A DNA stretch of 64,000 nucleotides from Christensenellaceae bacterium (GCA_045589175.1 JAZNFS010000033.1:90734-154733); one strand, 5' to 3'; shown: positions 5,527 to 44,797, counted from the first letter of the stretch. Program-made: numbers and translations. Notes: generated by a model not told the origin, from the sequence alone.

Positions 5527-6381
5527 TTAATTTTCTTCTTCGTAGTAGTAAGAATAATCTATACCATTCATAAAGATTTCACGGTCATCTATCTTGTCCG
5601 TTAAAGCATTTTTGATAAGAGCTAAAATATCACTATAATCAACAACACTTAATTTCATTGCTTCTAAATATTCAGTTTTATCAATTTTGCTCCAATCGAT
5701 ACATTTAGAAAGATTTTTCTTTAGTATTATATCTAACCAAATACGAGTAGTTCTGCCGTTGCCTTCCATAAAAGGATGCGCAACGTTCATTTCAACGTAT
5801 TTTTTTACGATTTCTTCTACTGTGTTTTCAGGCATTCTTTCAATAGTATTCAAAGTTTGCTCTAAATAACCAACACTTGCAAATACGAAACCACCCTTAC
5901 TAATATTTAACTTCCTAATTTGCCCTGCAAAATCGTATAAACCACCAAATAAATAAGAGTGGATTTGTTGCAAGCCGTTTATCGTTCCAACTTCAATATC
6001 ATTAATAAGACCACTTTCAAACATTTCGTAAGCCTTGTTCTTGCTTTGCTCGTCGATAGACGTGCCTTTTGTTTTAACCCATTTTAGAAATACGGCTGAC
6101 TTTTTGCTTGGAAGAATTGCTATAAGCAAATTAAGTCCGTCGTCATCTATAACGTCCGTCAAATATTTCTTGCCGTCTTTAGCCGTTAATTTCAGTTGTC
6201 TACAAATTGATGACAACTGATTATTTCTCTTTTTTAAGGTGTTCCAATATTTACGTGGAGAAGTGCTTAAAGAAAGGGCTTCTATAATATCAACTGCACA
6301 CAACCACCAATGAGAACTTTCTTCATCCCACACAGAACGAACAGGAACATTATCAAAAAATCTAATAGACGTTTTAATCAT
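5527..6381 (-). CDS. Fic/Doc family protein (AMPylase-type) with an N-terminal Bro-N-like domain
   Basis: The Fic motif [12 protein letters not shown] is present. The N-terminus ([30 protein letters not shown]) resembles the Bro-N phage antirepressor domain. Confidence 0.75.
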
Positions 6382-11636: not shown

Positions 11637-11959
11637 TTATATCAATTTATATAATTATATAATTATATTATATAATATAGTAGAAAATTTGTAAAGCAAA
11701 TTTTTCACTTTTATGTGGATAATCACAAAAAAATATATATTTTTTTGCAATTTTTGGCGCTAGTTATTAACAAATTTCCTTTTTGCGCGCTTTTTGAAAT
11801 TTAATTTGCTTATTTTTTTAGTTTTTTCATTTATTTTTATGTAGCGTATCGTTGACAAATAAGTAAATAATGCTATAATTAAAATGTAAACTGCTTACCT
11901 ATTTTTCATTATACTTGTTTTTTAAAAGCTGTTTGCCAAAAAACTGCGAGGTTGATTTT

Positions 11960-13075
11960 ATGTTTAACGAAGTAAAAAAGAATTTTGGTTTTGGCTGTAT
12001 GAGATTGCCAATGAGCGGCGAAGATGTTAATTTTGAAGAGTTTTCTTTAATGATTGACGACTTTATTTTACAAGGATTTAATTATTTTGATACCGCTCAC
12101 GGCTACCTTAACGGAAAAAGCGAGTTGGCTTTAAAAAAATGTTTAACCTCACGTTATCCAAGAAGTTCTTATATTTTAACCAACAAACTAAGCGGTTGGC
12201 ACTTTGAAAAACAAGAGGATATTATTCCACTTTTTAATTCGCAACTAGAGGCGTGTGGCGTTGATTATTTCGATTTTTATCTTATGCACGCTCAAAACGC
12301 TAACAATTTTGTTAAGTACAAAGAATGTAAGGCCTATGAAACGGCTTTTGAATTAAAAAAACAAGGCAAGATAAAACACGTTGGTCTTTCTTTCCACGAT
12401 ACGGCTGAAGTTCTTGATAACATTTTAACACAATACCCCGAAGTTGAAGTAGTTCAAATTCAACTTAACTATCTCGACTGGGAAGACCCAACAATTCAGT
12501 CGAAAAAATGTTACGAGGTTTGCGTTAAACACAACAAACCCGTTATAGTAATGGAGCCTGTAAAGGGCGGTAAGCTTGTAAACTTTCCACAAGAAATTAC
12601 CCAACTTATTACTGATGCAAACAACGGCTCTCCTGCAAGCTACGCTATTCGCTTTGCGGCAAGCCTTGAAAAGGTATTTATGGTTCTTTCGGGAATGTCA
12701 AACTGCGAGCAAATGAGCGACAATCTTTCTTATATGCGCGAATTTAAACCGCTTGAAAGTGCCGATTACGCGCTTATAGACAGCGTTGTTAAAAAATTAG
12801 CCGAGCTAAAAGTTATACAATGCACCGCTTGCAGATACTGCACCGAAAACTGTCCGCAAGGTATTTTAATTCCCGATATGTTTACTTGCTACAATAATAA
12901 AAAGGCTTATAACGACTGGAACGCCGACCGATATTATGCCGAAACGCTTTGTAAAAATGGCGCAAAAGCAAGCGAGTGTATTAAGTGCGGAATATGTGAA
13001 AGCGTATGTCCACAAAAACTAAAGGTTCGCGAACTTTTAGTTGAGGTTGCAAATACCTTTGAAAATAAAGAATAA
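11960..13075 (+). CDS. Aldo/keto reductase fused to a C-terminal 2x[4Fe-4S] ferredoxin domain
   Basis: ATG 11960 follows a GAGGT RBS. An AKR fold is followed by CTACRYCTENCPQ and CIKCGICESVCPQ cluster motifs. Confidence 0.8.
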   Translation: MFNEVKKNFGFGCMRLPMSGEDVNFEEFSLMIDDFILQGFNYFDTAHGYLNGKSELALKKCLTSRYPRSSYILTNKLSGWHFEKQEDIIPLFNSQLEACGVDYFDFYLMHAQNANNFVKYKECKAYETAFELKKQGKIKHVGLSFHDTAEVLDNILTQYPEVEVVQIQLNYLDWEDPTIQSKKCYEVCVKHNKPVIVMEPVKGGKLVNFPQEITQLITDANNGSPASYAIRFAASLEKVFMVLSGMSNCEQMSDNLSYMREFKPLESADYALIDSVVKKLAELKVIQCTACRYCTENCPQGILIPDMFTCYNNKKAYNDWNADRYYAETLCKNGAKASECIKCGICESVCPQKLKVRELLVEVANTFENKE

Positions 13076-13204
13076 CACACCCTATTACCCCTTGTTCGCC
13101 AAAAATCTCACCTTATTGAACAAGCCTGCGATCTTGGAGATTTTTGCCTTAAAACAAAAACAGCGCCCCTTAAAAAGATGATTACAATTAAACGAATATA
13201 ATAT

Positions 13205-13245
13205 AAAAAGTGCCGATATAACTTTACTATCGGCACTTTCGTTTT
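13205..13245. terminator. Bidirectional intrinsic terminator
   Basis: Hairpin AAAGTGCCGATA...TATCGGCACTTT has T-runs on both sides. Confidence 0.5.
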
Positions 13246-13555
13246 ATTTATTTTCTTCTATGCGTTCTATTAAAAAGCTTACGGGGCGAAACCCGTCGTT
13301 ACAGGATATTAAAGCGGAATATGGATTTTTCATCCAACCGTCATAAAAATTACCGCCACCTAAGGCAAGTTCTTTAACAAAAGGATAAACGCTTTCCCAC
13401 GCGCTTTTACAAAACCCTTTGGGGCAACTTGCGTTCTCGCTTATAAAGGTTGTTCCTATTACGATATCGCAAGCGTGCTCGATAGGATTTTCATACTTTT
13501 CAATTAAATCTTCATAAATCGCCCTTTTTATTGGCGTTATTTTTACTTTATACAT
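13244..13555 (-). CDS. Small cysteine-containing protein (uncharacterised family, possibly TIGR04076-like)
   Basis: 103-aa ORF with conserved Cys residues (CDIV, CPKGFCKSAW). It is translationally coupled to the upstream gene. Confidence 0.4.
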   Translation of the reverse strand: MYKVKITPIKRAIYEDLIEKYENPIEHACDIVIGTTFISENASCPKGFCKSAWESVYPFVKELALGGGNFYDGWMKNPYSALISCNDGFRPVSFLIERIEENK

Positions 13556-14414
13556 GCTTTATTCCCGCTGTTTTTAAAAAACTTTCCCCGTCGTATGGCG
13601 GAATAATTATAAAATAATCTACCCCGCCAGTATTAAAATAAACTTTTATGCAGTTTTTAACGCTAAATAGCCCTACCGTAGTTATTTTTACTCCATAAGG
13701 CTTTATTGCTTTATCGTTTAAGGGTAAATTTTTATTCCAACTATTAAAGGTTACTGCCTTTTTTATAACTTCGTAGCCCTTAAAATCCTTCCTTTTTATA
13801 CCAAAAACGGTTGTTAAATCGCCAAACATTAAATATTCGCCCGAGCAAAAAATACGTACCGAAGTGTTTACGTAATTAAATGCTTTAACTACGGGCTTTA
13901 GCTCGCCGTTTTTATTTTCATAAACGGATAAAAATATATCACATTCTTTTGCTTGCGCAGGGATTTTTAAATCTTTTATACATTCGTCGTAAAGAGTCTC
14001 GCCGTTTTTGATAGTATCTAAATACTCGCTATCTTTAACAAGTTTTTTTTCGCGAATGGTTTTTATTATTAATAATACCGTTCCAACCAAAGCAAATATA
14101 CAGCCGAAAATAAAAATTATTAAGCCTTTATTAAAAGCGGTTTTTAAATCGCTTTCTTTTGTAACTGAAACAAAAAACACAACCAACAAAAACAAACCTA
14201 TCATTAGTGACAAATATCTTATTAACACCAAAAAATTAGGTTCTTTTGCGCGCTTTTCATATTCAGTTATTTTTTCAGTAAACTTTATTTGTTTTTGCAT
14301 AAGCTCTTCGCTTAATTTACGCACCACAAATTTCTCGCTTTCGCTATAACCGCTTGAAACGTCAACTGCAAAAAGTTCTTTCATAATTTTATCCTTAAGC
14401 ACGAAATCGCGCAC
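13548..14414 (-). CDS. Hypothetical membrane protein
   Basis: 288 aa with two central TM helices and no recognisable motif. Confidence 0.45.
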   Translation of the reverse strand: MRDFVLKDKIMKELFAVDVSSGYSESEKFVVRKLSEELMQKQIKFTEKITEYEKRAKEPNFLVLIRYLSLMIGLFLLVVFFVSVTKESDLKTAFNKGLIIFIFGCIFALVGTVLLIIKTIREKKLVKDSEYLDTIKNGETLYDECIKDLKIPAQAKECDIFLSVYENKNGELKPVVKAFNYVNTSVRIFCSGEYLMFGDLTTVFGIKRKDFKGYEVIKKAVTFNSWNKNLPLNDKAIKPYGVKITTVGLFSVKNCIKVYFNTGGVDYFIIIPPYDGESFLKTAGIKHV

Positions 14415-14415
14415 T

Positions 14416-15447
14416 CTATTTAGTTTCTTCCTTTAACTGTTTTAATCGTTTTTCGTATTCTTTAACAAATTTAGTGCTTGAATTTAATAACCTTTGATAA
14501 CTTTTATCTAAAGTTCGAGCCCAGTTAGTTTCGCCCGTAAACTTTCTATATTCGCGATGCGCCCTAACGGTAGATAAATCGCTTATGGATCCCACAAAAA
14601 AGTTTTCAGCAAGGTTTTTGTTTTGTTCGCTAAGGTTTCCGTTTAAACACTCGTTATAAATAATTTCAGGGAAAATAAGTAGGTATTCTTGATCGTCAAA
14701 TTGTAAAATATCAGCCGATAAGTCGATTAACACCTCGTTAGCACGTTTAAACTTTTCGCGAACAATAAGGTGTTTGTAATAATAAATACGGGCAAGCGGT
14801 TGTTTTGAATTTTGCAAAATGGCAGGACAAGAAGGAATTATACCCTTTGAGATTTGCCTTTCTTGGTGCATAATTTCAACCAAAACGTCGGCGTAATCGC
14901 TACTTGAAAAAATTAAGTATCCATCAGAAGTTTTATCAAAAGTTAAACAGTTAACAACTAATAAGTAAGTAGCAGGCAAACTTGCTACACCCACCAAGCA
15001 AAAAACTACGGGATTGGTTATACAAAGCGCCAAAACAATACCTAAAAGCGCATATAAAAACGAAAATAACAATCCGCCAAAGGCAGTTAAGCGTAGCTTT
15101 TCTTTAGTTGTTCCCTTATAAGGTAAAAATAGGCTTTCTCCTGCGTTTTCACCAAAAAACGTAAAAAACTTAACGCGTTTTTCTTTTTTTGTAAAATCAA
15201 TTGCAAACAATCCAAAATTTACGTAATTAACGGCAAACTTGTTTTTCTTAGCAAAAATTAAATGCCCGAGTTCGTGTAAAAAACAAGCTATAAAGTAATG
15301 TACTACCCACCCCACGACAAAACAAGTGATGGCAACCCATACTTTTGCCTTTAAGGTACTTATAGCGTATAGATTAAACAATACTGCCAAACCCAGCCAA
15401 GCTAGAACTAATATTAAATTGATAAAAAACGCTTTTTTATTTTTCAT
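14416..15447 (-). CDS. Putative membrane-embedded zinc metalloprotease (HExxH, M50-like)
   Basis: Polytopic protein with HELGH inside a TM helix (FLHELGHLIFAKK). Confidence 0.5.
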   Translation of the reverse strand: MKNKKAFFINLILVLAWLGLAVLFNLYAISTLKAKVWVAITCFVVGWVVHYFIACFLHELGHLIFAKKNKFAVNYVNFGLFAIDFTKKEKRVKFFTFFGENAGESLFLPYKGTTKEKLRLTAFGGLLFSFLYALLGIVLALCITNPVVFCLVGVASLPATYLLVVNCLTFDKTSDGYLIFSSSDYADVLVEIMHQERQISKGIIPSCPAILQNSKQPLARIYYYKHLIVREKFKRANEVLIDLSADILQFDDQEYLLIFPEIIYNECLNGNLSEQNKNLAENFFVGSISDLSTVRAHREYRKFTGETNWARTLDKSYQRLLNSSTKFVKEYEKRLKQLKEETK

Positions 15448-21782: not shown

Positions 21783-22937
21783 TCAAATTTTTATACTAAG
21801 CAGGTTATCAACCGAAGAAAATAATTCTTCAAGCACCCCACTATGCATGAGTGCAAAATATAACCCAATAGCAAGCCCTACACCTAAAATTATTGCTATT
21901 AAAACCCTTAATGGTGATATAGGTGATTTGCCGGTTACTTTGCCGTTATTCCCATTAACTAAAACGGGATAATCTTTTTTGTTATACCTATAATTTAAGC
22001 GGTAAATAGGTAATAAAACGTATTTATATTTAACTGAATTATGTACTGTTGAAACGTTTAAATAGTCAATAACGTCGTAGCCGTAATAATGCAAAATATC
22101 CTGACGAAGCTGTTTATCTATAACCTCTTTAGCGTCCGCCCAACAGTCTTTAATATCCCTTGAATAATGCCTTGCCGTAAAACCCGATAAAAACTTGTTT
22201 TCGTAAACGCAAAGTGTTTCTTTTTTAAAGGGTTGAAGTTTATCAAGTTCATTTTGCGATATTCCGCCTGCAGAAATTGAAACGTCGTCAAACAATTTAG
22301 CAAAAGTTCCCTGAACGTGATGCCAAACTATGTAAGTTTCGGTGCGAGTTTTACCCTTTGAATCTCTTACCGTACGTGTTCTGCGTTCGCCAAGCCTACC
22401 TTCGTAATCTGAATAAGTATCGCTATCAAAGGTAAAAAATGGCATATAAATACCGTGAAGATTGCTTTCAACTAAGTTCTTTTTAAACTTAGTAGGCGCA
22501 AAAATACGCCTTTTTGCCCATTTTTTCGATAGATCAAGTGCACTTAAATTATCAATTAAAAAGGGATAAACTGCGGTAGGTTTTACACCGGCAAGGTCTT
22601 CGCGCTTAACGATATGCGTAGTTGAACAGTATGGGCAAATAACCGAAACTTCAACGTTTGAAACACTAAAGTTTGCACCACAGTTTTCACAACAATACAT
22701 CGTTGTTTCTTCATTCCATTTGGGAGCTTTTTGTAAAGCTTCTTCTAAACAAAACTCAGCTACGCTTTGATTTTTTTTAAAATCGACCTGCTTACCGCAA
22801 TGCCCGCATTTTAAAGTTTGAGTTAGTGGGTCAAACGACATATTTGATCCACACCCATCACATTTAATAAACACGCTTTCTTTTTGAGGGCTTGAATTTT
22901 CGCTTTCAAATTGATTAACGTTTTTATTTTCTTCCAT
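21783..22937 (-). CDS. Double zinc-ribbon protein with a C-terminal TM anchor
   Basis: Two zinc ribbons (CDGCGS...CGHCGK and CENCGA...CPYCS) and a C-terminal hydrophobic helix. Confidence 0.5.
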   Translation of the reverse strand: MEENKNVNQFESENSSPQKESVFIKCDGCGSNMSFDPLTQTLKCGHCGKQVDFKKNQSVAEFCLEEALQKAPKWNEETTMYCCENCGANFSVSNVEVSVICPYCSTTHIVKREDLAGVKPTAVYPFLIDNLSALDLSKKWAKRRIFAPTKFKKNLVESNLHGIYMPFFTFDSDTYSDYEGRLGERRTRTVRDSKGKTRTETYIVWHHVQGTFAKLFDDVSISAGGISQNELDKLQPFKKETLCVYENKFLSGFTARHYSRDIKDCWADAKEVIDKQLRQDILHYYGYDVIDYLNVSTVHNSVKYKYVLLPIYRLNYRYNKKDYPVLVNGNNGKVTGKSPISPLRVLIAIILGVGLAIGLYFALMHSGVLEELFSSVDNLLSIKI

Positions 22938-23533: not shown

Positions 23534-24598
23534 TTAATTTAATTTATTACCGCAAGATGCGCAGAATTTATCGCCAGACGCTACTTCGTTTCCACATTCT
23601 GGGCAAAAGCGCTTAACGTCCATTTTAGCGCCACATTCTGGGCAGAACTTACTGCCTGCTGCAACCTCTTTTTTACATGACTTACAAATTACGGTTGCTT
23701 TTTTAGGCTCTTCTTTTTGTGGCTTACTTTCGCTACCCTTCATTGCATCGCTCATAATAGCGCCAACTTGCGCGCCTGCACCCATGCCAACACCAACGCC
23801 CATAAACGCTCCGCCAACACCTGGGTTTTTAGCCGCGCTTCTCATTGCTTCGGCAGCAGAAACCTTCATCATAGTGTCGGTAGCATCGCCTAAAATACCG
23901 TATTTAGAGCGTTCGTCTAAAGCCTTTTCAACTTCTTGTGGAACAGACATATTTTCGATTATAAGCGTTTGTAAACTTAAACCGATTTCTTTAAACATAC
24001 TTTGTATTTTAGCCTTAACTATGGTTTGAAATTCCATTGTGTTGCCGGCTAAATCAATAACTGAAATTTTACTTTCGCCGATAGCATCTGTAATTCCCGA
24101 AACGATCATACCTTTTAGGTACTCTTGAATTGCGCTAGTTTCAAAAGAAGAATTAGTGCCAAAAAGTTGACGCATAAAGGTTGGAGCATCGTCAACCTTA
24201 AAAGCGTAAGAACCAAAACCGCGTACGCGTATAACCCCAAATTCGGGATCACGCATCATAAATGGGTTTTGTGTTCCCCATTTCATATTAGTAAATAGTT
24301 TGGTGTTAACAAAATATACGTCTAAAGTAATAGGGGTTTCAAATTTATATTTCCAAGAAGCAAGTTTAGTAAGAACGGGTAAAATTTCGCTTTCTAAGTT
24401 GTATAAGCCTGGTGTAAAAACGTCGGCAATTTGACCTTTATGTACGAAAATTGCTACTTGTGATTCTCTAACGGTAAGCGAGCTTTTGTTGTTAACTTCT
24501 TTACCACTGTTTTTAAAAGGATATTTATATACCATTCTGTTGGTGGTATCGTCTGACCATTCTATATTAAGCCTAAATAAGTTATCAAAAAGTCCCAT
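23534..24598 (-). CDS. SPFH/Band-7 domain protein with a C-terminal double zinc ribbon
   Basis: Start at MGLFDNLF (ATG 24598, AAGGAG RBS). A Gly-rich linker follows the SPFH core. The C-terminus has CKSCKK..CPECG..CPECG..CASCG. Confidence 0.7.
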   Translation of the reverse strand: MGLFDNLFRLNIEWSDDTTNRMVYKYPFKNSGKEVNNKSSLTVRESQVAIFVHKGQIADVFTPGLYNLESEILPVLTKLASWKYKFETPITLDVYFVNTKLFTNMKWGTQNPFMMRDPEFGVIRVRGFGSYAFKVDDAPTFMRQLFGTNSSFETSAIQEYLKGMIVSGITDAIGESKISVIDLAGNTMEFQTIVKAKIQSMFKEIGLSLQTLIIENMSVPQEVEKALDERSKYGILGDATDTMMKVSAAEAMRSAAKNPGVGGAFMGVGVGMGAGAQVGAIMSDAMKGSESKPQKEEPKKATVICKSCKKEVAAGSKFCPECGAKMDVKRFCPECGNEVASGDKFCASCGNKLN

Positions 24599-24768
24599 AA
24601 CATACTCCTTTGTGTCAATAAAATCATAAAATGCGCACACGCACGCATTATGATTATATATTATATCATCACTTTTATAATTTTACAATCATTTTTTATA
24701 AGTTTTTTGCTTTTTATTTTTGTTTATAGTTTATAAACACTCGTTTTTTAGTTTTTTTAAACAACTGC

Positions 24769-25386
24769 CTATTCTTCATCATCGGAGTTGTCGATATCGT
24801 CATCAAACTCTTCTATATCATCATCGAGGTCATCTTCGCAATCATCATCCGCATAATCGATATCTTCTTTCGTTTCATCTTCATCAATAGGATCTTCTTC
24901 ATAGTCTTCTATATCGTCATCCTCATCAATCGAATCTTCTTCATCATCTGGAGAGTCAAACGATAAAACCACGTCGTTTTGCTTTGGTTTTCTAAATACG
25001 ATAAAGGTATCGTAAAGATATTCGGTTGCAAAGTTTATAATCATATTCATAACAACAACCACAGTATCATTCCAACCTATTTGCACTAAAGCGTCGCCCC
25101 ACCAAGTTGAAAGTGGTGTAAATACTAAATAGTAGCAAGCAACCAAGAACATTGCAAACGGAACGTTAACCGCGCTTTTAAAGGTAAATTTACGGTTGAA
25201 AGTAAAATTCCATAAAACCGAAAGCGCAAGCGAAATTACGTAAACCCACCAGTAATATTGTTCTGGAGTAAACCAAATACCGCAAAGTAGTGCCAAAAGC
25301 TCGTAAGAAACTATTTGAATTACACCTGCCGAAATTGAAAATGCAGTAAATTTTAAAATTTGAATAAATCTTTCCTTCTTTGTCAC
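24769..25386 (-). CDS. GtrA-family membrane protein with a poly-acidic C-terminal tail
   Basis: Four-TM GtrA-like core. The last ~65 aa are nearly all D/E. Apparent GTG start at 25386 with an AAGGA RBS. Confidence 0.6.
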   Translation of the reverse strand: MTKKERFIQILKFTAFSISAGVIQIVSYELLALLCGIWFTPEQYYWWVYVISLALSVLWNFTFNRKFTFKSAVNVPFAMFLVACYYLVFTPLSTWWGDALVQIGWNDTVVVVMNMIINFATEYLYDTFIVFRKPKQNDVVLSFDSPDDEEDSIDEDDDIEDYEEDPIDEDETKEDIDYADDDCEDDLDDDIEEFDDDIDNSDDEE

Positions 25387-25426
25387 TTTTATTTCCTTTT
25401 AACAATAAAAATTGAAGATTTTTTAT

Positions 25427-25452
25427 TAAAAACCACGCTATAACGCGATTAA
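25427..25452 (-). promoter_or_regulatory. Copy A of the conserved upstream motif (TAAAAACCACGCTATAACGCGATTAA), 5' of the GtrA-like gene
   Basis: 26/26-nt identity with copies at 26122 and 28612. It lies ~40 nt upstream of the start codon. Confidence 0.55.
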
Positions 25453-25489
25453 AGGCGCTTTCATATCCTTTTAAAAGGATTTAAAAGTT

Positions 25490-26092
25490 TTATTTTAGTT
25501 TAAGCCACATAGCAGGACGCACTGCAACGTTATTACTATATGCAATATCACCACGAGTATCTATTATACCTTCACCGTCAACAAGCGCTTCACGACGTTC
25601 ACCCACGCCGGGCGAACGAAGCCACCAAAAACACGCTTTAGTAGCCGTATTTTGGTAAGCGTTATTTTTCATTGCGTACATAGTTGGCTCGCTTTGTTTG
25701 GATTTATCCGTAGGTAAATATTCTTTTGCTTCCTTTACGCTAAAAACAAATAATTTATCCTCAGTTGTAGTTATAAAACCTAATAACGACTTTTCTTCTT
25801 CAGTTTTAGTTGTTTCAATCATTTCTTTTTCTTCTTGAGTAAAGGCGTTATTATAAAATTCACCGTTTAGCCAAGCCCTTAAAGTGCATTTTTTCCAACT
25901 TGTTTTTTCATATTTTTCGTGGTAAGGCTTACAATCAATGCCGTATTTGCTAATAACAAGCACCATATTATCATCTTTTTTAACCAACAACCACTCGATA
26001 GGTTCTTTGATTTTAGGGTTAGACTTAGTATAATTACCAAACTCAATACTATCTCCTCTTTTCATTTTTGCAACTTCTTCTTTTTTTAACAT
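25490..26092 (-). CDS. DUF6273-like single-domain protein
   Basis: Motifs IEWLLV, SKYGIDCKPY, CTLRAWLNGEFYNNAF, WWLRSPG and VRPAMWL. ATG 26092 follows a GGGAGAA RBS. Confidence 0.55.
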   Translation of the reverse strand: MLKKEEVAKMKRGDSIEFGNYTKSNPKIKEPIEWLLVKKDDNMVLVISKYGIDCKPYHEKYEKTSWKKCTLRAWLNGEFYNNAFTQEEKEMIETTKTEEEKSLLGFITTTEDKLFVFSVKEAKEYLPTDKSKQSEPTMYAMKNNAYQNTATKACFWWLRSPGVGERREALVDGEGIIDTRGDIAYSNNVAVRPAMWLKLK

Positions 26093-26121
26093 TTTCACGT
26101 TCTCCCGAATTTGTTTTCATC

Positions 26122-26149
26122 TAAAACCACGCTATAACGCGATTAACAG
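26122..26149 (-). promoter_or_regulatory. Copy B of the conserved upstream motif (TAAAACCACGCTATAACGCGATTAACAG)
   Basis: Lies ~30 nt upstream of the 25490-26092 gene. Confidence 0.55.
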
Positions 26150-26195
26150 CGGTTTTGCGTTTCTTGTACTTGTCGTTTGTTTTTTATTAAGTATT

Positions 26196-28580
26196 TTAAT
26201 CTAACGTAACCCACATTGCTGGGCGCACACAACGATTCGTAAGATTCACATTTTTACCACTATCCTTAACTTTGCCATCCGAATTTACATAACCAACGAA
26301 ATTTTGATTACTACCTGGTGTTCTAATCCACCACATACAATTTTCACCATCCACATATGCACCATTTTCCCTTGCAAAGGCGGTAGGTTTACATGCCCTT
26401 TCTTCATCAACTTCAAAATGTTCTTTTGCCCCTTTGAGGCTTAATAAAAACATTTTATCGTTAGTTGAATTCCCTGGGTTTCTATTATATAAAGGGTTTT
26501 TGTCCGCGCTTACATGCATTAATTGAATTTTTAACTGTTCTTCACTGTTAAATGCACTGTTTAAAAACTCATTATTTAGCCATTTTCTTAAAGTACAACG
26601 CTCCCATGTTATATTAGTATCTTGAGAATTGTATGGCTTGCAGTCAAGAGCATATTTACTAATAAGTAACACCTTATCTTCTTGTTTTTCAAGAAGTAAC
26701 CACTCGATATCTTCTTTTATGCTAGCATCACTTTGTGGGTATTTACCAAACTTTATATAGCCACCAACTTTTGCATCGTTAAAAGGATTTAAAACCGCCT
26801 TTAAGTTTGTTTTTTCGGCTTCTTGCTTATCTTGTTTAGTCACAGCATCAAGTTCAATCCATATTACCGGACGCACAGCCATGTCAGTATTATTAACAAT
26901 GCTACCACCATTATGTATATGCCCATCACTATGGACATAACTTGCATTACTTTGAAAATGACCAGGAGTACAAAGCCACCAATTAACATTGTTTCTAAAA
27001 TCAACACTTAAGCCGTTTTGTTTTGCATAAGCAGTAGGCTTACATATTCTTAATGTATCGCTATTAAAATGCTTATTTACATCAGATATCGTTAATAAAT
27101 TTACTTTATCTTCTGTTGGTTTTCCAGCCTTTGTTCCATAAACAGGATTGCATCCTGCAGATATTAAAACTGTTGATATTTTAGTTTTCTCATCTACTGA
27201 AAAGGCATTATTAAAAAATTCATTATTTAGCCATTTTCTTAAACTGCAATTTGCCCAAGTGATATCTTCAAATTTATCATGATATTGCTTGCAATCAAGA
27301 GCATATTTACTAATCAGTAAAGCCCCGCTACCTTGTTTATCAAGAACTAACCACTCGATATCTTCTTTTGTGCTGGCATCACTTTGTGGGTATTTACCAA
27401 ACTTTATATAGTCACCCACTTTTACATTATTTAAAGCATGTTGCTTATTTTTGCTAACGCTTGGCGCTCTTCGTGACTTTTCACTTATTAATGAATCATT
27501 TTGTTCAAGCTCTTTTTTAAAACGCTTTTGCTCTTCAATTTGTTTTTGAGAATCAAAATCTTCTTCAAAACAATCGTCTGCGCACATATATTTCATAATG
27601 CGCGCTTTTACGCCATCAATATCGTAGCAATATTCAAGCCCTGCAAAAATTTCGTTAACGATACCGTCTGCCATACTCTTTGTATCGTCGAGCCTTAACT
27701 GAATACGCGGTTTTTTATACTTACAATTTATTTTATCATAAGAAAGATTAGGGAATTTATATCGCAAATTTTCTAAATCGCTCTTTTTTAAATATGGCAA
27801 TTCGTGCTTTATTGCGTCGCACTTAAAATTGCGCGAATTTTTTGAAGAGATAAATAAAAAGATTTTACTGTTATCAATAGCCTTTTCAAGCGCTTGTTGA
27901 TAGTTATTAACCGCGCCAACACCGTGCTGTAGGTTACGCATTGCAACAAAGCAAGTTAACCCTTCTTCTTCAAGGGCGGTTACAATTTGTTGAACTTTAC
28001 CCATGTCGGCGCTTGAATACGCCACGAATACGTCACGCGGTAAATTAAGCTCGTAAACGCCTTCTTCAACAAGTTCGGCTTGAGTAGCAAAAGCGGTTGT
28101 TAGGCGATTATAGGTTTGTAAATCACTACCCTTATACGCCCTTTCAATTAGGTTATTAACGCATAGCAAATATTCACTTTTTAGCGATTTAATTAAAAAG
28201 TTAACGATAGGCTCAATAACTTCGTAATGCTCTTTTACGTTTATGTTATCAATAAAATCAATTACCGCTTGTTCGTATTGACCACAAACAACTTCGTAAA
28301 AGTTTGCTAAAAAATCTTCGGGATAAATATTTTTAATATTTAAACATATAGAAACTATTTTTTCGCTATCAATAAATTTTGCAGTTGCTTCTTGCCATAA
28401 ATGACGGCGAAGCGAATTTAACTGCTCTTGCTTTTGTTTATCTAAAAAACTATCAAGAAGCTCTTGTTGTTTTTTTGCGGTAACTTGCGCATAGGTAGAG
28501 CCACAGTTTTCACACTTGCAAATTTCTTCACTTATAGGCTGTAGCGTTCCACCACAGTTTTTACAAAATAACTCTTGCAT
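26196..28580 (-). CDS. Multi-domain protein: N-terminal zinc ribbon, helical domain, TIR-like domain and three DUF6273-like repeats
   Basis: N-terminal CKNCGG..CKCENCGS. The TIR-like block reads DVFVAYSSADMGKVQQIVTALEEEGLTCFVA...KIFLFISSKNS. Three repeats each carry the EWLVL / SKYALDCK / CSLRKWLNNEF / WWL(C/R)TPG / VRP(V/A)(I/M)W motifs. Confidence 0.6.
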   Translation of the reverse strand: MQELFCKNCGGTLQPISEEICKCENCGSTYAQVTAKKQQELLDSFLDKQKQEQLNSLRRHLWQEATAKFIDSEKIVSICLNIKNIYPEDFLANFYEVVCGQYEQAVIDFIDNINVKEHYEVIEPIVNFLIKSLKSEYLLCVNNLIERAYKGSDLQTYNRLTTAFATQAELVEEGVYELNLPRDVFVAYSSADMGKVQQIVTALEEEGLTCFVAMRNLQHGVGAVNNYQQALEKAIDNSKIFLFISSKNSRNFKCDAIKHELPYLKKSDLENLRYKFPNLSYDKINCKYKKPRIQLRLDDTKSMADGIVNEIFAGLEYCYDIDGVKARIMKYMCADDCFEEDFDSQKQIEEQKRFKKELEQNDSLISEKSRRAPSVSKNKQHALNNVKVGDYIKFGKYPQSDASTKEDIEWLVLDKQGSGALLISKYALDCKQYHDKFEDITWANCSLRKWLNNEFFNNAFSVDEKTKISTVLISAGCNPVYGTKAGKPTEDKVNLLTISDVNKHFNSDTLRICKPTAYAKQNGLSVDFRNNVNWWLCTPGHFQSNASYVHSDGHIHNGGSIVNNTDMAVRPVIWIELDAVTKQDKQEAEKTNLKAVLNPFNDAKVGGYIKFGKYPQSDASIKEDIEWLLLEKQEDKVLLISKYALDCKPYNSQDTNITWERCTLRKWLNNEFLNSAFNSEEQLKIQLMHVSADKNPLYNRNPGNSTNDKMFLLSLKGAKEHFEVDEERACKPTAFARENGAYVDGENCMWWIRTPGSNQNFVGYVNSDGKVKDSGKNVNLTNRCVRPAMWVTLD

Positions 28581-28611
28581 AATTTATCTCCTTCGTTAAA
28601 ATATTTTCACT

Positions 28612-28640
28612 AAAAACCACGCTATAACGCGATTAACAGC
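28612..28640 (-). promoter_or_regulatory. Copy C of the conserved upstream motif (TAAAAACCACGCTATAACGCGATTAACAG)
   Basis: Lies ~30 nt upstream of the 794-aa gene start. Confidence 0.55.
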
Positions 28641-28700
28641 CCTTTGAATTATTTTTTTTATCTAAATTTATAAAACCTGCTATTAAGTTTTAACGTTGTA

Positions 28701-29483
28701 TCACTTTACACTTATTTGTAGAACTGGAACAATTCCTTTCATCGACGTTTGAAATGAATAGAAAATAGAGCCGTCTGTATTTCCAATCCATGCATAGTTA
28801 ATAGACGCGTGATAAGGCGAACGAAGCCACCAAGTTCCATTACCATATCTATCCAAGGTGGTAAGTATACCAACACCAGTTGCGCGAGCATAGTCGCTGG
28901 CTATCTTTTCTCTTACTGAACTTCTTCCTTCATTTTGATTATCAAGATTACATGCTTCTTGTTTACTTAATAAATAAATTTTATCTTTAGTATTTTTGCA
29001 TGCATTTTTATTTGAAGAATGCCCAGTACTTGCTTTAGTGTTGTTTACGGTTGTAACAGCGATTAACTTTTTTTGAATTTCATTAAATGCAAGATTATAA
29101 AACTCAGCGTTAAGCCAAGCCCTAATTTCACTATCCATATAAGTTTGTGGGATAGTGGAAAAAACTCGACCATCAATTATGTTTGTGCATAAAACCGATA
29201 AAGTTTCACTATCTTTTGAAAGAACTATCCACTTTATGGGCTCAACTTTAAAATAATATTCATTACCTTTAGTTATGATAGTTCCGTTTGAAAACTTATA
29301 ATTCGTATTATATGGGGTTGCTACTATTTTTGAATAACATTCGCCGTCGCTACCCAAGTAATAACCATTTTCATTTACAGTATCGGATACAACAACATCA
29401 TCTTCTTTAACTGATTGCGGATAAAAACCAAAATCTACTATCTCGCCTATTTTTACATTTTTTAGGATATCGTTCATTACCAT
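28701..29483 (-). CDS. DUF6273-like protein, translationally coupled to rsmA
   Basis: Motifs IKWIVL, IRAWLNAEFYNLAF and WWLRSPY. The start lies 3 nt after the rsmA stop. Confidence 0.55.
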   Translation of the reverse strand: MVMNDILKNVKIGEIVDFGFYPQSVKEDDVVVSDTVNENGYYLGSDGECYSKIVATPYNTNYKFSNGTIITKGNEYYFKVEPIKWIVLSKDSETLSVLCTNIIDGRVFSTIPQTYMDSEIRAWLNAEFYNLAFNEIQKKLIAVTTVNNTKASTGHSSNKNACKNTKDKIYLLSKQEACNLDNQNEGRSSVREKIASDYARATGVGILTTLDRYGNGTWWLRSPYHASINYAWIGNTDGSIFYSFQTSMKGIVPVLQISVK

Positions 29484-29486
29484 TTT

Positions 29487-30326
29487 CTATCCCTTATAAC
29501 CTTTTTGCTTAATTACGTTAGATAGCTTTACAAAATCGGCTTCGCAAAGGGTTTCGCCACGCGCAAGCAAATCAATTTCACATTCTAAAAGTAAATTTTC
29601 GATTGAAACTTTATCAATCTTAAGCCATTCACGCAAATTATTAGCAAGCGTTTTTCTTCTTGATAAAAAAGCGTTTCTAACCGTTTCGCGATATAAAATT
29701 CTATCAACACCCTCGAACTTGTTTCGATTAAAGGTTATTTTCACCACCGCACTATCAACGTTTGGCGCAGGATAAAACATTTTACGCGAAACACTTAAAA
29801 TGCGCTCACTATCTGCAACAACGTTAATACCTGCGGTAATTGCACCGTATTCACTAGTTCCGGCTTTAGCGCAAATTCTATCCGCCACCTCTTCTTGCAC
29901 CATAATAACTATGCCCTTACAAAGTTTAGATTCTTCAATAAACTTCATAATGATAGGAGTTGTTATATAGTAAGGTAGATTTGCAACGAGCATATAAGGT
30001 TCGCCAATGCGGTTTTCGGTTTCGTGCGTTTTTTCACGCATAATATCCTTAAAAGTTATGTCGCAATTTTCAATCCCTGCAAGATTTTCACCCAAAACAG
30101 GTGCTAACGTTTTATCAATTTCGTAGCCGTAAACGTATTTTGCTCTTTCGCATAAAACCTTGGTTAAAGTTCCTGCACCGCACCCTATTTCAAGCACGGG
30201 GGTAGTTTTATCAACCCCACTTTTTATAACGATACTTTCAAGCAAATTGCTGTCGCTTAAAAAGTTTTGCCCGTATTTTTTACTAAACTTAAAATCGTGT
30301 TTTTTAAGTAATTCGCCAAGTTTCAT
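29487..30326 (-). CDS. rsmA: 16S rRNA (adenine1518/1519-N6)-dimethyltransferase
   Basis: The N-terminus KKYGQNFL and the SAM-binding motif are present. Confidence 0.9.
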   Translation of the reverse strand: MKLGELLKKHDFKFSKKYGQNFLSDSNLLESIVIKSGVDKTTPVLEIGCGAGTLTKVLCERAKYVYGYEIDKTLAPVLGENLAGIENCDITFKDIMREKTHETENRIGEPYMLVANLPYYITTPIIMKFIEESKLCKGIVIMVQEEVADRICAKAGTSEYGAITAGINVVADSERILSVSRKMFYPAPNVDSAVVKITFNRNKFEGVDRILYRETVRNAFLSRRKTLANNLREWLKIDKVSIENLLLECEIDLLARGETLCEADFVKLSNVIKQKGYKG

Positions 30327-34649: not shown

Positions 34650-35732
34650 ATGGCAGAAAAAGAGCTTATAAAATACGTTGGTGACAACAATACTTTAGTA
34701 CATAAATTCACTTGTCCCGATTTAAAACCAACTGCAGAACTTATGGTTCACGACTCGCAAGAAGCGGTTTTTTATAAAAACGGCCAAGCGTTAGACGTTT
34801 TTCCAGGCGGTATTCATTCTTTAAAACCTGAAAACGTACCATTTTTAAAACGTGTTTTCGGCGCTATTTTTGGCGGACCAAACACCTTCCCTTGCGATAT
34901 ATTCTTTGTAAATAAAGTTTCTGTGCTTGATATAATTTGGGGAACTGATTCTCCTATAGCGCTTGAAGATCCAAAATACCCTATGCTTATAAACGTTCGC
35001 GCAAACGGCCAAACGGGTTTAAAAATTAAAGACTCTAGCAAATTCGTTGCAAACGTAGTTGGTCAACTTCCAGAAATTAGCGTTGAAGCCGTTCGCCGTG
35101 CAATTAAAGGTATGATGATGAGTTCTATCAAAGAGTGTATTGCCATAGCAATTGCCGAACATAAAGTAAGCATTTTAGAAATTTCAACTAAACTTAGCGA
35201 ACTTTCTAACGCTATTTTAGCAAAATTAAACGCAAGAGTTGCCGATTTAGGTATTGAACTTAACCACTTTGCAATCAACTCAATCTCTGCAAGCGAAAGC
35301 GATCTTGAACAACTTCGCAAAACTAAAGCTGAAATGCTTAAGGGCTTTAGTGAAGCAGATATTGAAGCATATAAAATTTCAAGAATCAGTGAAGCGCGCG
35401 CCAAAGCACGTGAAACTGAAGGCTACACTTATGCCGACGAACGCAAATTTGACGTTTTAGAAGAAGCAGCAAAAAATGCTAACGCCCCTGCTTTTGCAGG
35501 CAACGCAGTTAACCAAATGGGCAACTCAACTTTAAACGCTCCTGCATCTAAACCAGTTCAACAAGGCACTGGTAAGGTTTGCCCCGAATGTGGTGCGCCA
35601 GTTGCAGAAGGTGCTAAGTTCTGTATGAACTGCGGTAAACAACAACCTGTTGCTATGTTCTGCCCTGAATGTGGTAACAAATGCGTTCCAGGAAGTAAAT
35701 TCTGCATGAACTGCGGAACTAAGCTCGGCTAA
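34650..35732 (+). CDS. SPFH/Band-7 domain protein with a C-terminal double zinc ribbon, paralog of 23534-24598
   Basis: SPFH core. The C-terminus has CPECGAP..CMNCGK..CPECGNK..CMNCGT. An upstream promoter reads TTGACT...TGTAAAAT. Confidence 0.7.
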   Translation: MAEKELIKYVGDNNTLVHKFTCPDLKPTAELMVHDSQEAVFYKNGQALDVFPGGIHSLKPENVPFLKRVFGAIFGGPNTFPCDIFFVNKVSVLDIIWGTDSPIALEDPKYPMLINVRANGQTGLKIKDSSKFVANVVGQLPEISVEAVRRAIKGMMMSSIKECIAIAIAEHKVSILEISTKLSELSNAILAKLNARVADLGIELNHFAINSISASESDLEQLRKTKAEMLKGFSEADIEAYKISRISEARAKARETEGYTYADERKFDVLEEAAKNANAPAFAGNAVNQMGNSTLNAPASKPVQQGTGKVCPECGAPVAEGAKFCMNCGKQQPVAMFCPECGNKCVPGSKFCMNCGTKLG

Positions 35733-42015: not shown

Positions 42016-42055
42016 ATAGCATGAGATGACTCGACTTGCGCGTAATCACAACGCA

Positions 42056-42103
42056 TTCTCCTTCCACCGCTAAAGCGGTCCCCCTTCCTCCCGGAGGACG
42101 GCT
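42056..42103 (+). repeat. GC-rich repeat, type B copy 1 (TTCTCCTTCCACCGCTAAAGCGGTCCCCCTTCCTCCCGGAGGACGGCT)
   Basis: Carries two short hairpins (ACCGC-TAAA-GCGGT and TCCTC-CCG-GAGGA). Near-identical copies lie at 42616 and 44721. Confidence 0.6.
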
Positions 42104-42161
42104 AATTTATATAAGCAAAATAAAAAAAAATATAGTTAATTAAAAAGGTTTTATATAAATA

Positions 42162-42542: not shown

Positions 42543-42593
42543 AAGGCTCCTTCGGGGAGGGAGCTGGCGCGTATGAGACTGAGGGAGAATGCC
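42543..42593 (+). repeat. GC-rich repeat, type A copy 1 (AAGGCTCCTTCGGGGAGGGAGCTGGCG...GAGGGAGAATGCC)
   Basis: GCUCC-UUCGGGGAG-GGAGC hairpin containing a UUCG loop. Second copy at 42707. Confidence 0.55.
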
Positions 42594-42615
42594 CTTTACG
42601 TGCTTTTAATTTTTT

Positions 42616-42667
42616 CGCTTTCTCCTTCCACCGCTGAAGCGGTCCCCCTTCCTCCCGGAGGACGGCT
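42616..42667 (+). repeat. GC-rich repeat, type B copy 2
   Basis: 50/52-nt identity with copies 1 and 3. Confidence 0.6.
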
Positions 42668-42706
42668 TGGAAAATTTTGCTTAGACTTACATTATTAGTA
42701 TAAAAT

Positions 42707-42757
42707 AGGCTCCTTCGGGGAGGGAGCTGGCGTGCAAACGCCTGAGGGAGAGTGCCA
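42707..42757 (+). repeat. GC-rich repeat, type A copy 2
   Basis: Near-identical to 42543-42593 over the first 27 nt and the last 13 nt. Confidence 0.55.
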
Positions 42758-42845
42758 TTTTGCTTTTAAACGCGTTTTAAAATAGAAAAAGTTAAAAAAC
42801 AAAAACGGCTTTGTAATAATACCAAAGTCCAAAAAGGTATAAAAT

Positions 42846-44551: not shown

Positions 44552-44720
44552 TCTCTTTTAATTAAATATTATAGCACGGTAGAATATCGTTATGGTCAAA
44601 TGATAAACTACCGTGCTTTTTTATTGTTTTGGTTGTTATATTTTTTTTGAGACCTTTCGACTGACGCTCAAGGTGACATTACAATGCTCAACATGACAAA
44701 AGAAAAAGCGCGGTGTATAA

Positions 44721-44772
44721 CGCTTTCTCCTTCCACCGCTAAAGCGGTCCCCCTTCCTCCCAGAGGACGGCT
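44721..44772 (+). repeat. GC-rich repeat, type B copy 3 (followed by TTTTTT)
   Basis: CGCTTTCTCCTTCCACCGCTAAAGCGGTCCCCCTTCCTCCCAGAGGACGGCT. Confidence 0.6.
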
Positions 44773-44797
44773 TTTTTGGGGGTGGCATTATAAAAGA

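Follow-up and report, generated by a model that had tools for sequence, protein, structure and literature searches.

A TIR protein with two DUF6273 domains, encoded in a strain-variable insertion downstream of rsmA, as a candidate sensor-effector from a large gut Clostridia family

Analysis of a 64,000-nucleotide (nt) stretch of a Christensenellaceae bacterium genome (GCA_045589175.1, JAZNFS010000033.1:90734-154733; "the window" below) showed that a 794-amino-acid (aa) protein encoded downstream of rsmA belongs to both the TIR superfamily and DUF6273. Its fusion of TIR to DUF6273 is a rare C-terminal variant of a large, uncharacterized family of gut Clostridia (Christensenellales-like), and its gene is part of a four-gene block that is a strain-variable insertion between rsmA and an SPFH gene. 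By analogy with enzymatic TIR proteins, we see about an even chance that the 794-aa protein is a self-contained cytoplasmic sensor-effector with TIR as its effector domain, probably acting in conflict or immunity. The block had been singled out in an earlier note, made from the sequence alone, which described the four genes as one array, and several of its claims are taken up below.

The first ~340 residues of the protein, here called the N-module, were defined by a search of 5.8 billion proteins; beyond them, the C termini of the relatives differ widely. Conservation was read from an alignment of 84 module-bearing proteins, and the same alignment was fed to AlphaFold2. The resulting model (predicted local distance difference test [pLDDT], 91.6) consists of a three-stranded ribbon, a helical domain at residues 32 to 172, an alpha/beta domain at residues 182 to 334, and disorder from residue 336. 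The zinc ribbon and the TIR domain that the earlier note had read in this protein were both borne out. The ribbon cysteines C6, C9, C23, and C26 are invariant in the 84 relatives, as are the TIR residues R182, F185, Y188, D192, F211, N216, L217, G220, Y227, S245, R250, E260, and R292. The Pfam model TIR_2 (PF13676; gathering cut-off, 28 bits) matched residues 184 to 252 with 36.8 bits, covering only model positions 1 to 65 of 122. The protein has no predicted signal peptide or transmembrane (TM) helix.

The structure prediction proposed earlier as a check of the TIR assignment came out in its favor. The alpha/beta domain has the TIR order of secondary-structure elements and a flavodoxin-like fold that superposes on solved TIR domains, and the invariant glutamate E260 lies in the first turns of helix alphaC (residues 255 to 271), right after strand betaC (residues 238 to 245). 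E260, R182, D192, R250, and the RNLxHG loop are strictly kept in all 137 sequences examined, i.e., the 84 aligned proteins and 53 further family representatives described below. The segment CDAIKHE, which ends in E260, is in register with the SARM1 segment KDWVHKE(642) in a motif alignment, so that E260 would be equivalent to SARM1 E642 at the motif level. When the TIR profile was compared by hhalign with a SARM1 TIR sequence, only betaA to betaC aligned (probability, 31%), short of the catalytic helix. When the full alignment was used for a profile search of the PDB, its leucine-rich repeat (LRR) part dominated the result; a TIR-only alignment gave weak but consistent TIR matches (best E value, 6.6e-4). 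Foldseek placed PdTIR, AbTir, and BtpA among the top matches. The all-helical domain had no informative structural neighbor in the PDB; it accompanies TIR in the full-module matches listed.

The C-terminal part of the protein carries two DUF6273 domains rather than the three repeats counted in the earlier note. Pfam found two stretches (DUF6273, PF19789; 181 bits against a gathering cut-off of 23.5), tblastn detected two copies within the protein, and the hallmark motifs are all present in duplicate, so a third repeat was rejected. The same Pfam search, which the note had called for, also found DUF6273 in the two stand-alone proteins of the block. Domains A and B are 53% identical overall at the protein level (tblastn), whereas their first 108 nt are 90% identical (26681-26788 versus 27332-27439), which suggests that their N-terminal beta-hairpin segments recently underwent gene conversion. 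The DUF6273 domains adopt the fold of C-type lectins (CLec), and their PHROG matches point to the same Hoc-like family as phage DUF6273 proteins. DUF6273 has been described as a CLec-like domain that bears the variable region targeted by diversity-generating retroelements (DGRs) in gut phages, and phage receptor-binding proteins are diversified through it (PMC10743442, PMC11792537, bioRxiv 10.1101/2024.10.15.618418). None of the three DUF6273 proteins in the window has a leader peptide, unlike most of the stand-alone relatives.

The N-module is far more widespread than the fusion found here. Searched by HMMER without filters, a set of 1.84 billion cluster representatives (50% identity clusters) yielded for the N-module 452 representatives at E values of ≤1e-30, and hence at least 452 clusters, and 989 at ≤1e-3. 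Among the best 150 matches, module residues ~3 to 335 usually form the N terminus, and the proteins range in length from 286 to 3132 aa. The 794-aa protein is the sole member of its 90% cluster. When 53 random family representatives were scanned with Pfam, TIR_2 was found in every one, LRR_5 (BspA type) in 30 (57%), and TPR in 4; DUF6273 (about 4%), Sel1, the Ribosomal_L12 C-domain, and TM2 were found in 2 representatives each. E260 is invariant in this sample as well. A TM helix follows the N-module in 24 of 94 members. Across the family, the N-module is kept and the C-terminal binding domain is swapped: it is mostly a BspA-type LRR and otherwise DUF6273, TPR, Sel1, MORN, TM2, or an L12-C-like domain. 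DUF6273 also stands behind two unrelated TIR N termini (P0028, P0030, P0034, and P0060 for one and P0036 for the other), and the pairing of TIR with CLec domains therefore arose more than once.

NCBIfam has no model for the N-module family, and its members carry generic names in their source records ("leucine-rich repeat protein," "NINE protein," or "TIR domain-containing protein"). A literature search for bacterial TIR proteins with BspA, LRR_5, or DUF6273 returned nothing relevant. The earlier suggestion that TIR plus DUF6273 is an undescribed arrangement therefore stands in part: no mention of it was found in the literature searched, but it is a minor variant of a large family, and CLec sensors fused to TIR effectors have a conceptual precedent among DGR targets (PMC10907252). 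As a separate observation, a domain resembling the C terminus of ribosomal protein L7/L12 (PF00542) lies between the TIR module and the repeats in P0020, P0021, P0039, P0041, P0045, P0055, and P0065. Such a partner is unusual for TIR and could point to the sensing of translation factors.

The accessory nature of the four genes is clear from related genomes. The window proteins were mapped onto 80 rsmA loci from species-representative genomes, all of which conserve metG-tatD-rsmA. Four species among the closest (L004, L005, L006, and L009; RsmA 77 to 79% identical) have the SPFH gene directly after rsmA, and in the three of these whose contig continues (L005, L006, and L009), the downstream genes are the same as in the window, up to miaA. 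Because the nearest species join rsmA to SPFH with the same downstream genes, the four-gene block is a strain-variable insertion downstream of rsmA. Any DUF6273 gene at all was found at only 2 of the 80 loci, and the GtrA-like gene is absent from the loci of the nearest species. Universal conservation next to rsmA was not seen among these loci, and the note's description of the array as accessory holds.

Comparison with a conspecific genome (RGIG6167, sheep rectum; locus L003, RsmA 99% identical) showed how the block varies. Its gene order is rsmA, the 260-aa DUF6273 gene (duf260), the 202-aa DUF6273 gene (duf202), TIR::LRR, and the GtrA-like gene (gtrA). At 12433-15012 of that locus, an 859-aa TIR::coiled-coil::LRR_5 protein is encoded in place of TIR::DUF6273 and at a different position. 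The duf260 and GtrA-like proteins are 98% identical between the two strains. The proportion of synonymous differences (pS) was 0.214 for rsmA, compared to 0.012, 0.116, and 0.085 for duf260, duf202, and gtrA, respectively, which gives the accessory genes a younger or exchanged history. The ratio of nonsynonymous to synonymous differences (pN/pS) is ~0.15 for duf202 and gtrA, indicating purifying selection on both. Over residues 1 to 60, the TIR proteins of the two strains share 97% identity, compared to 53 to 87% thereafter, a pattern that indicates recombination among paralogues. The coiled-coil linker of the L003 protein is a perfect tandem array of about seven copies of the peptide EEQRKQEQARKL. 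In P0010 (847 aa), which is near-identical to this protein, 12 residues, or one unit, are missing, and the length of the linker may vary.

A 27-nt element, CTGTTAATCGCGTTATAGCGTGGTTTT, marks the junctions within the block. It occurs three times in the window, compared to 0 times expected by chance, and exactly three times per strain, so that all three junctions between genes downstream of duf260 have one copy (in L003 at 11691-11708, 12377-12394, and 15048-15065). In the DNA comparison, the blocks of homology between the window and L003 start and stop at copies of the element. The block thus consists of cassettes that are bounded by this element and reshuffled between the strains. Two further roles for it were considered and rejected. 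First, as an RNA hairpin or terminator, it could pair into a stem of 8 bp, G-U pairs included, ahead of a U-run, but its z scores were only -1.2 to +0.5 relative to shuffled sequence, and a terminator scan did not call it. Second, a general cassette signal is not supported, since the element is missing from 81 other loci and the metagenome collection has a single further copy (L090), which lies upstream of an unrelated gene.

A single system of four genes, as implied in the earlier note, is not supported. Relatives of the TIR protein are solitary in about ten contexts (including six in other genomes and three more in the conspecific genome), with no GtrA-like gene, no stand-alone DUF6273 gene, and no recognizable defense gene nearby. 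These include the TIR::DUF6273 proteins P0014, P0047, and P0002, the TIR::LRR proteins P0008, P0020, P0090, and P0117, and P0030, which joins another TIR type to two DUF6273 domains. Their neighbors include luxS, nrdD, trigger factor, clpX/lon, rseP/plsX, and gap/pfk. The conspecific strain RGIG6167 carries at least four paralogues of the TIR family. The other three genes of the block are co-resident accessory genes and not obligate partners.

A constant, enzymatic-looking module, swapped binding repeats, and genes that are multi-copy, mosaic, and strain variable would together be the signature of a sensor-effector family in some biological conflict, and on this basis we infer an enzymatic activity, a trigger, and a biological role for the TIR protein. 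The flexible charged linker would tie the N-module to two tandem DUF6273 ligand-binding domains. By analogy with enzymatic TIRs, binding of a ligand by the lectin-fold domains might relieve autoinhibition or drive self-association of the TIR domains. The activated TIR might then cleave NAD+, or generate a NAD-derived signal, through E260, and the outcome would be growth arrest or signaling during attack by a phage or mobile element.

Several observations weigh against a sensor-effector role in immunity. First, position 256, four residues before E260, corresponds to the Trp of the W-x-x-x-E motif of SARM1 and plant TIRs, and here it is an Ala that is invariant or nearly so; because of this replacement, the chemistry or substrate of the domain may differ from those of SARM1 and plant TIRs. 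Second, the best structural matches are of the scaffold type. Third, 57 of the 78 stand-alone relatives of the 202-aa protein have a signal peptide, a lipobox, or a zinc-ribbon-TM anchor. Together with the quarter of the TIR family that is anchored, this means that the binding domains are often extracellular, a placement that fits the sensing of the envelope or the environment no less than that of phages. Fourth, no STAND NTPase or other thresholding partner was found in the protein (Pfam) or among its neighbors. Finally, there was little sign of known defense. PADLOC gave the TIR protein a weak ThsB-like match (E value, 2e-3; 15.6 bits), with no defense-system model that fits, and gave no match for the other three array proteins. 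No recognizable defense island was found among the about ten contexts. The comparison with defense islands suggested in the note likewise turned out negative for the window, which is a core chromosomal region with housekeeping genes (gyrAB, metG, tilS-like, gltX).

Some of these points would be accommodated by a TIR domain that is not an enzyme. The family might instead be a scaffold or receptor for sensing the envelope or the environment, outside immunity, in which TIR serves as an oligomerization or adaptor domain as in MyD88, MAL, and the Toll-like receptors (TLRs). The members with a TM segment would then be TLR-like, with LRR or CLec domains outside and TIR inside, and the leaderless window protein would be their cytosolic counterpart, with a ligand from the cell. 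The Ala at the Trp position, the TM segment between TIR and the repeats in 24 of 94 members, the anchored or exported DUF6273 relatives, the placement of the genes among housekeeping genes without a defense-island context, and the scaffold-type structural matches all agree with such a receptor. However, the invariance of E260, R182, D192, R250, and the RNLxHG loop in 137 sequences is what one would expect of an active site more than of a simple scaffold, the neighborhood has no conserved adaptor or kinase that could act downstream, and multi-copy, mosaic, strain-variable behavior is more typical of conflict genes. We consider this explanation unlikely on balance, though it deserves serious weight.

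It is improbable that the four genes make up one unit for handling cell-surface glycans, in which the GtrA-like protein would act as the flippase of a lipid-linked sugar, the DUF6273 proteins would bind the glycan, and the TIR-like domain would process a nucleotide or nucleotide sugar. No glycosyltransferase (GtrB-like) is encoded in the array, and the three DUF6273 proteins, which have no export signals, would not meet a flipped glycan. It is true that the CLec fold commonly binds carbohydrates and that nucleoside 2-deoxyribosyltransferases share the TIR-like fold. All four genes, counting a TIR-family member as one of them, are present at the locus in both strains, and three share the upstream 27-nt element; however, the other strain has TIR::LRR instead, at a different position, and other TIR::DUF6273 and TIR::LRR loci have neither a GtrA-like nor a stand-alone DUF6273 neighbor.

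Even less probable is a secreted, host-directed effector of the Tcp-like class (Brucella BtpA/TcpB and Paracoccus PdTIR), which would interfere with host TIR signaling or deplete host NAD+ and use its lectin-fold domains to target host glycans. PdTIR, AbTir, and BtpA are among the top Foldseek matches, the organism is a ruminant gut commensal, and a secreted IgA protease has DUF6273 as its N-terminal domain, but the protein lacks a signal peptide and a secretion-system context, a Cys4 zinc ribbon at the N terminus, as it has, is a typical feature of cytoplasmic proteins, the TM-bearing relatives would put TIR on the cytoplasmic side, and the family is highly paralogous within small genomes. 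The least credible explanation, that the DUF6273 C termini are variable regions which a DGR at another site of the genome rewrites, draws on the facts that DUF6273 recurs among the DGR targets of gut phages, with its variable region at the domain C terminus, and that TvpA is a structural neighbor of DUF6273, but no template/variable repeat pair was found in the 64-kb window, no reverse transcriptase was found among the window open reading frames (ORFs) scanned, the strain differences in duf260 and duf202 are scattered and not clustered C-terminally, and the viral contigs scanned for the N-module held no relatives.

A sensor-effector built on TIR resembles several known systems without matching any of them. 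ThsA (SIR2, Macro, or SLOG) was not found among the neighbors, and the domains sought for CBASS, Pycsar, and type III CRISPR effectors (SAVED, STING, CARF, and cyclase/CD-NTase) were not found in the 794-aa protein or the window. The gap between TIR and DUF6273 (residues 336 to 380), where STAND/NLR-like TIR proteins (Avs, bNACHT, and TIR-NLR) would have a central P-loop NTPase, is a low-confidence charged linker. Because these defining partners and domains were tested for and not found, the protein is not a Thoeris component, a CBASS-type effector, or a STAND/NLR protein. Among the closest concepts is Bacillus subtilis SpbK, a solitary TIR immune protein that is also a structural match here. 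Compared to the single-gene TIR immune proteins and NADases (SpbK, AbTir, ThsB, TIR-SAVED, and TIR-STING), a partner of the ThsA, CD-NTase, SAVED, or STING kind is absent; only the N-module family has the zinc ribbon and the helical domain of 140 aa, the Trp of W...E is an Ala, and the sensor domains are CLec or LRR repeats.

The second likeness is to predicted conflict systems of multicellular bacteria, in which CLec sensors are fused to TIR or CHAT effectors (PMC10907252), including DGR-diversified CLec (FGS-type) antigen sensors fused to STAND NTPases and TIR/CHAT effectors (PMC7159879, PMC10907252). The logic described in these systems (Kaur et al. 2020, Dore et al. 2024) is the same, a CLec ligand sensor and a TIR effector in one protein. 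However, the window protein lacks an NTPase as well as MoxR/vWA partners, no DGR was found in the window, the protein has a zinc-ribbon/helical prefix, its CLec domains are of the DUF6273 type and in tandem, and its host is a small-genome member of the gut Clostridia and not a multicellular cyanobacterium or proteobacterium. Animal TLRs and plant TIR-NLRs likewise combine TIR with LRR, as most family members do, and about a quarter of the members have a TM helix in between, in a TLR-like layout. In this family, the order is reversed (TIR is N-terminal), the LRRs are of the BspA type (LRR_5), and there is no NB-ARC; the window protein has neither LRR nor TM helix, and the homology is that of the TIR fold only. 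Finally, the DUF6273 proteins that are DGR targets in gut phages (tentaclins, Mtd-like, and Hoc-like) and the Thomasclavelia ramosa IgA protease are either exported or part of the virion, whereas the window proteins are leaderless, one of them is fused to TIR, and they show no sign of hypermutation.

The layout of the locus is given in Table 1. The four minus-strand ORFs of 260, 794, 202, and 205 aa reported earlier between rsmA and the SPFH gene are all present. The reported spacing of 3 nt between the rsmA stop and the 260-aa gene was confirmed by reading the junction (TAG, then AAA, then ATG), and a Shine-Dalgarno-like purine-rich AAGGGA lies inside the 3' end of rsmA just upstream of the start. 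The G+C content of the array (0.31 to 0.37) does not set it apart from its flanks. The 205-aa protein had been described as GtrA-like with an acidic tail. The tail is there, with 42 D/E (63%) and a single K/R in 67 residues, and four hydrophobic segments are visible by eye in the sequence. The match to GtrA_DPMS_TM (PF04138) spans the full model (1 to 117 of 117; E value, 3e-5), but because its 24.6 bits are just below the gathering cut-off of 26.1, the GtrA-like identity is only probable. A Rfam scan of the entire 64-kb window at gathering thresholds gave no matches, and in a promoter scan the counts were equal to those in shuffled sequence.

Table 1. Features of the rsmA-SPFH interval and of the 794-aa protein (window coordinates)
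Feature	Coordinates	Strand	Remarks
rsmA (16S rRNA dimethyladenosine transferase)	29487..30326	-	Pfam RrnaAD, 184.9 bits; conserved left flank of the insertion
Stand-alone DUF6273 protein, 260 aa (duf260)	28701..29483	-	DUF6273, 75.1 bits; no leader peptide
27-nt element, copy 1	28613..28639	-	Upstream of the TIR gene
TIR::2xDUF6273 protein, 794 aa	26196..28580	-	Pfam TIR_2 and DUF6273
Cys4 zinc ribbon (aa 1-31)	28488..28580	-	C6, C9, C23, and C26 invariant; three short strands in the AlphaFold2 model
All-helical domain (aa 32-172)	28065..28487	-	AlphaFold2 helices, pLDDT about 90-97
TIR domain (aa 173-335)	27576..28064	-	TIR_2 match; invariant E260 in helix alphaC
Charged linker (aa 336-380)	27441..27575	-	pLDDT <50 from residue 336; 11 D/E and 10 K/R in 45 aa
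DUF6273 domain A (aa 381-590)	26811..27440	-	Motifs FGKY394, WWLCTP534, VRPVIW569
DUF6273 domain B (aa 591-794)	26199..26810	-	Best Pfam stretch 635-792; motifs FGKY611, WWIRTP750, VRPAMW785
27-nt element, copy 2	26123..26149	-	Upstream of the 202-aa gene
Stand-alone DUF6273 protein, 202 aa (duf202)	25490..26098	-	DUF6273, 96.4 bits; no leader peptide
27-nt element, copy 3 (2 mismatches)	25429..25455	-	Upstream of the GtrA-like gene
GtrA-like membrane protein, 205 aa (gtrA)	24769..25386	-	GtrA_DPMS_TM match and acidic tail
SPFH/Band_7 protein, double zinc ribbon	23534..24640	-	Band_7_1, 259 bits; conserved right flank, outside the insertion

Some further features of the window and of related loci were also noted. 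A homologue of the 260-aa protein is found at the same post-rsmA position in Candidatus Scatosoma (L024, 10904-12115; RsmA 53% identical), but it is exported: this 403-aa lipoprotein, encoded directly downstream of rsmA, combines a lipobox (FASC) and an acidic linker rich in Ser and Glu with a DUF6273 domain that shares 37% identity with the 260-aa protein. The SPFH protein has a paralogue (Band_7_1) at 34650-35732, ~10 kb from the copy next to the insertion, and both have C-terminal double zinc ribbons. A zinc ribbon also opens a 384-aa protein encoded nearby (21783-22937), as it does the TIR protein. The only mobile-element- or toxin-like gene of the window, at 5527-6381, encodes a 284-aa BRO-N plus Fic/DOC protein. 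Finally, two families of G+C-rich repeats of 54 to 59 nt, 85 to 93% identical, occupy intergenic positions around two DHH/DHHA1 genes and surE (42050-42108, 42614-42672, and 44719-44777 for one family and 42544-42597 and 42707-42760 for the other). They have no Rfam match at gathering thresholds and could be structured RNAs or repetitive extragenic palindromic (REP)-like elements.

Taken together, the family and locus data allow a broader reading, which is tentative and on the doubtful side. In gut Clostridia, the N-module might define a class of receptor repertoires that is as yet undescribed, germline encoded, and free of NTPases, with several solitary TIR receptors per genome whose LRR, C-type-lectin, Sel1, and TPR sensors are exchanged by recombination among paralogues. 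Such repertoires would include both TLR-like membrane-spanning and cytosolic members in which the ligand switches TIR chemistry directly, and the rsmA-proximal locus would be a hotspot of cassette exchange bounded by the 27-nt element. In practical terms, the N-module is compact (~335 aa) and confidently modeled, and E260 offers a mutational handle. If TIR is a scaffold, the family would still be an uncharacterized and widespread receptor-like family, although a less striking one. If the proposed mechanism is true, the 794-aa protein would be a minimal TIR immune receptor that works without a STAND NTPase or a second-messenger partner. Its family would be built on two classic diversifiable scaffolds, the LRR and the C-type lectin, and would be present in several copies per genome in an abundant uncultured gut lineage. 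This would widen the design space of TIR signaling, and DUF6273, otherwise a domain of phage receptor-binding proteins, would gain a role in the cell.

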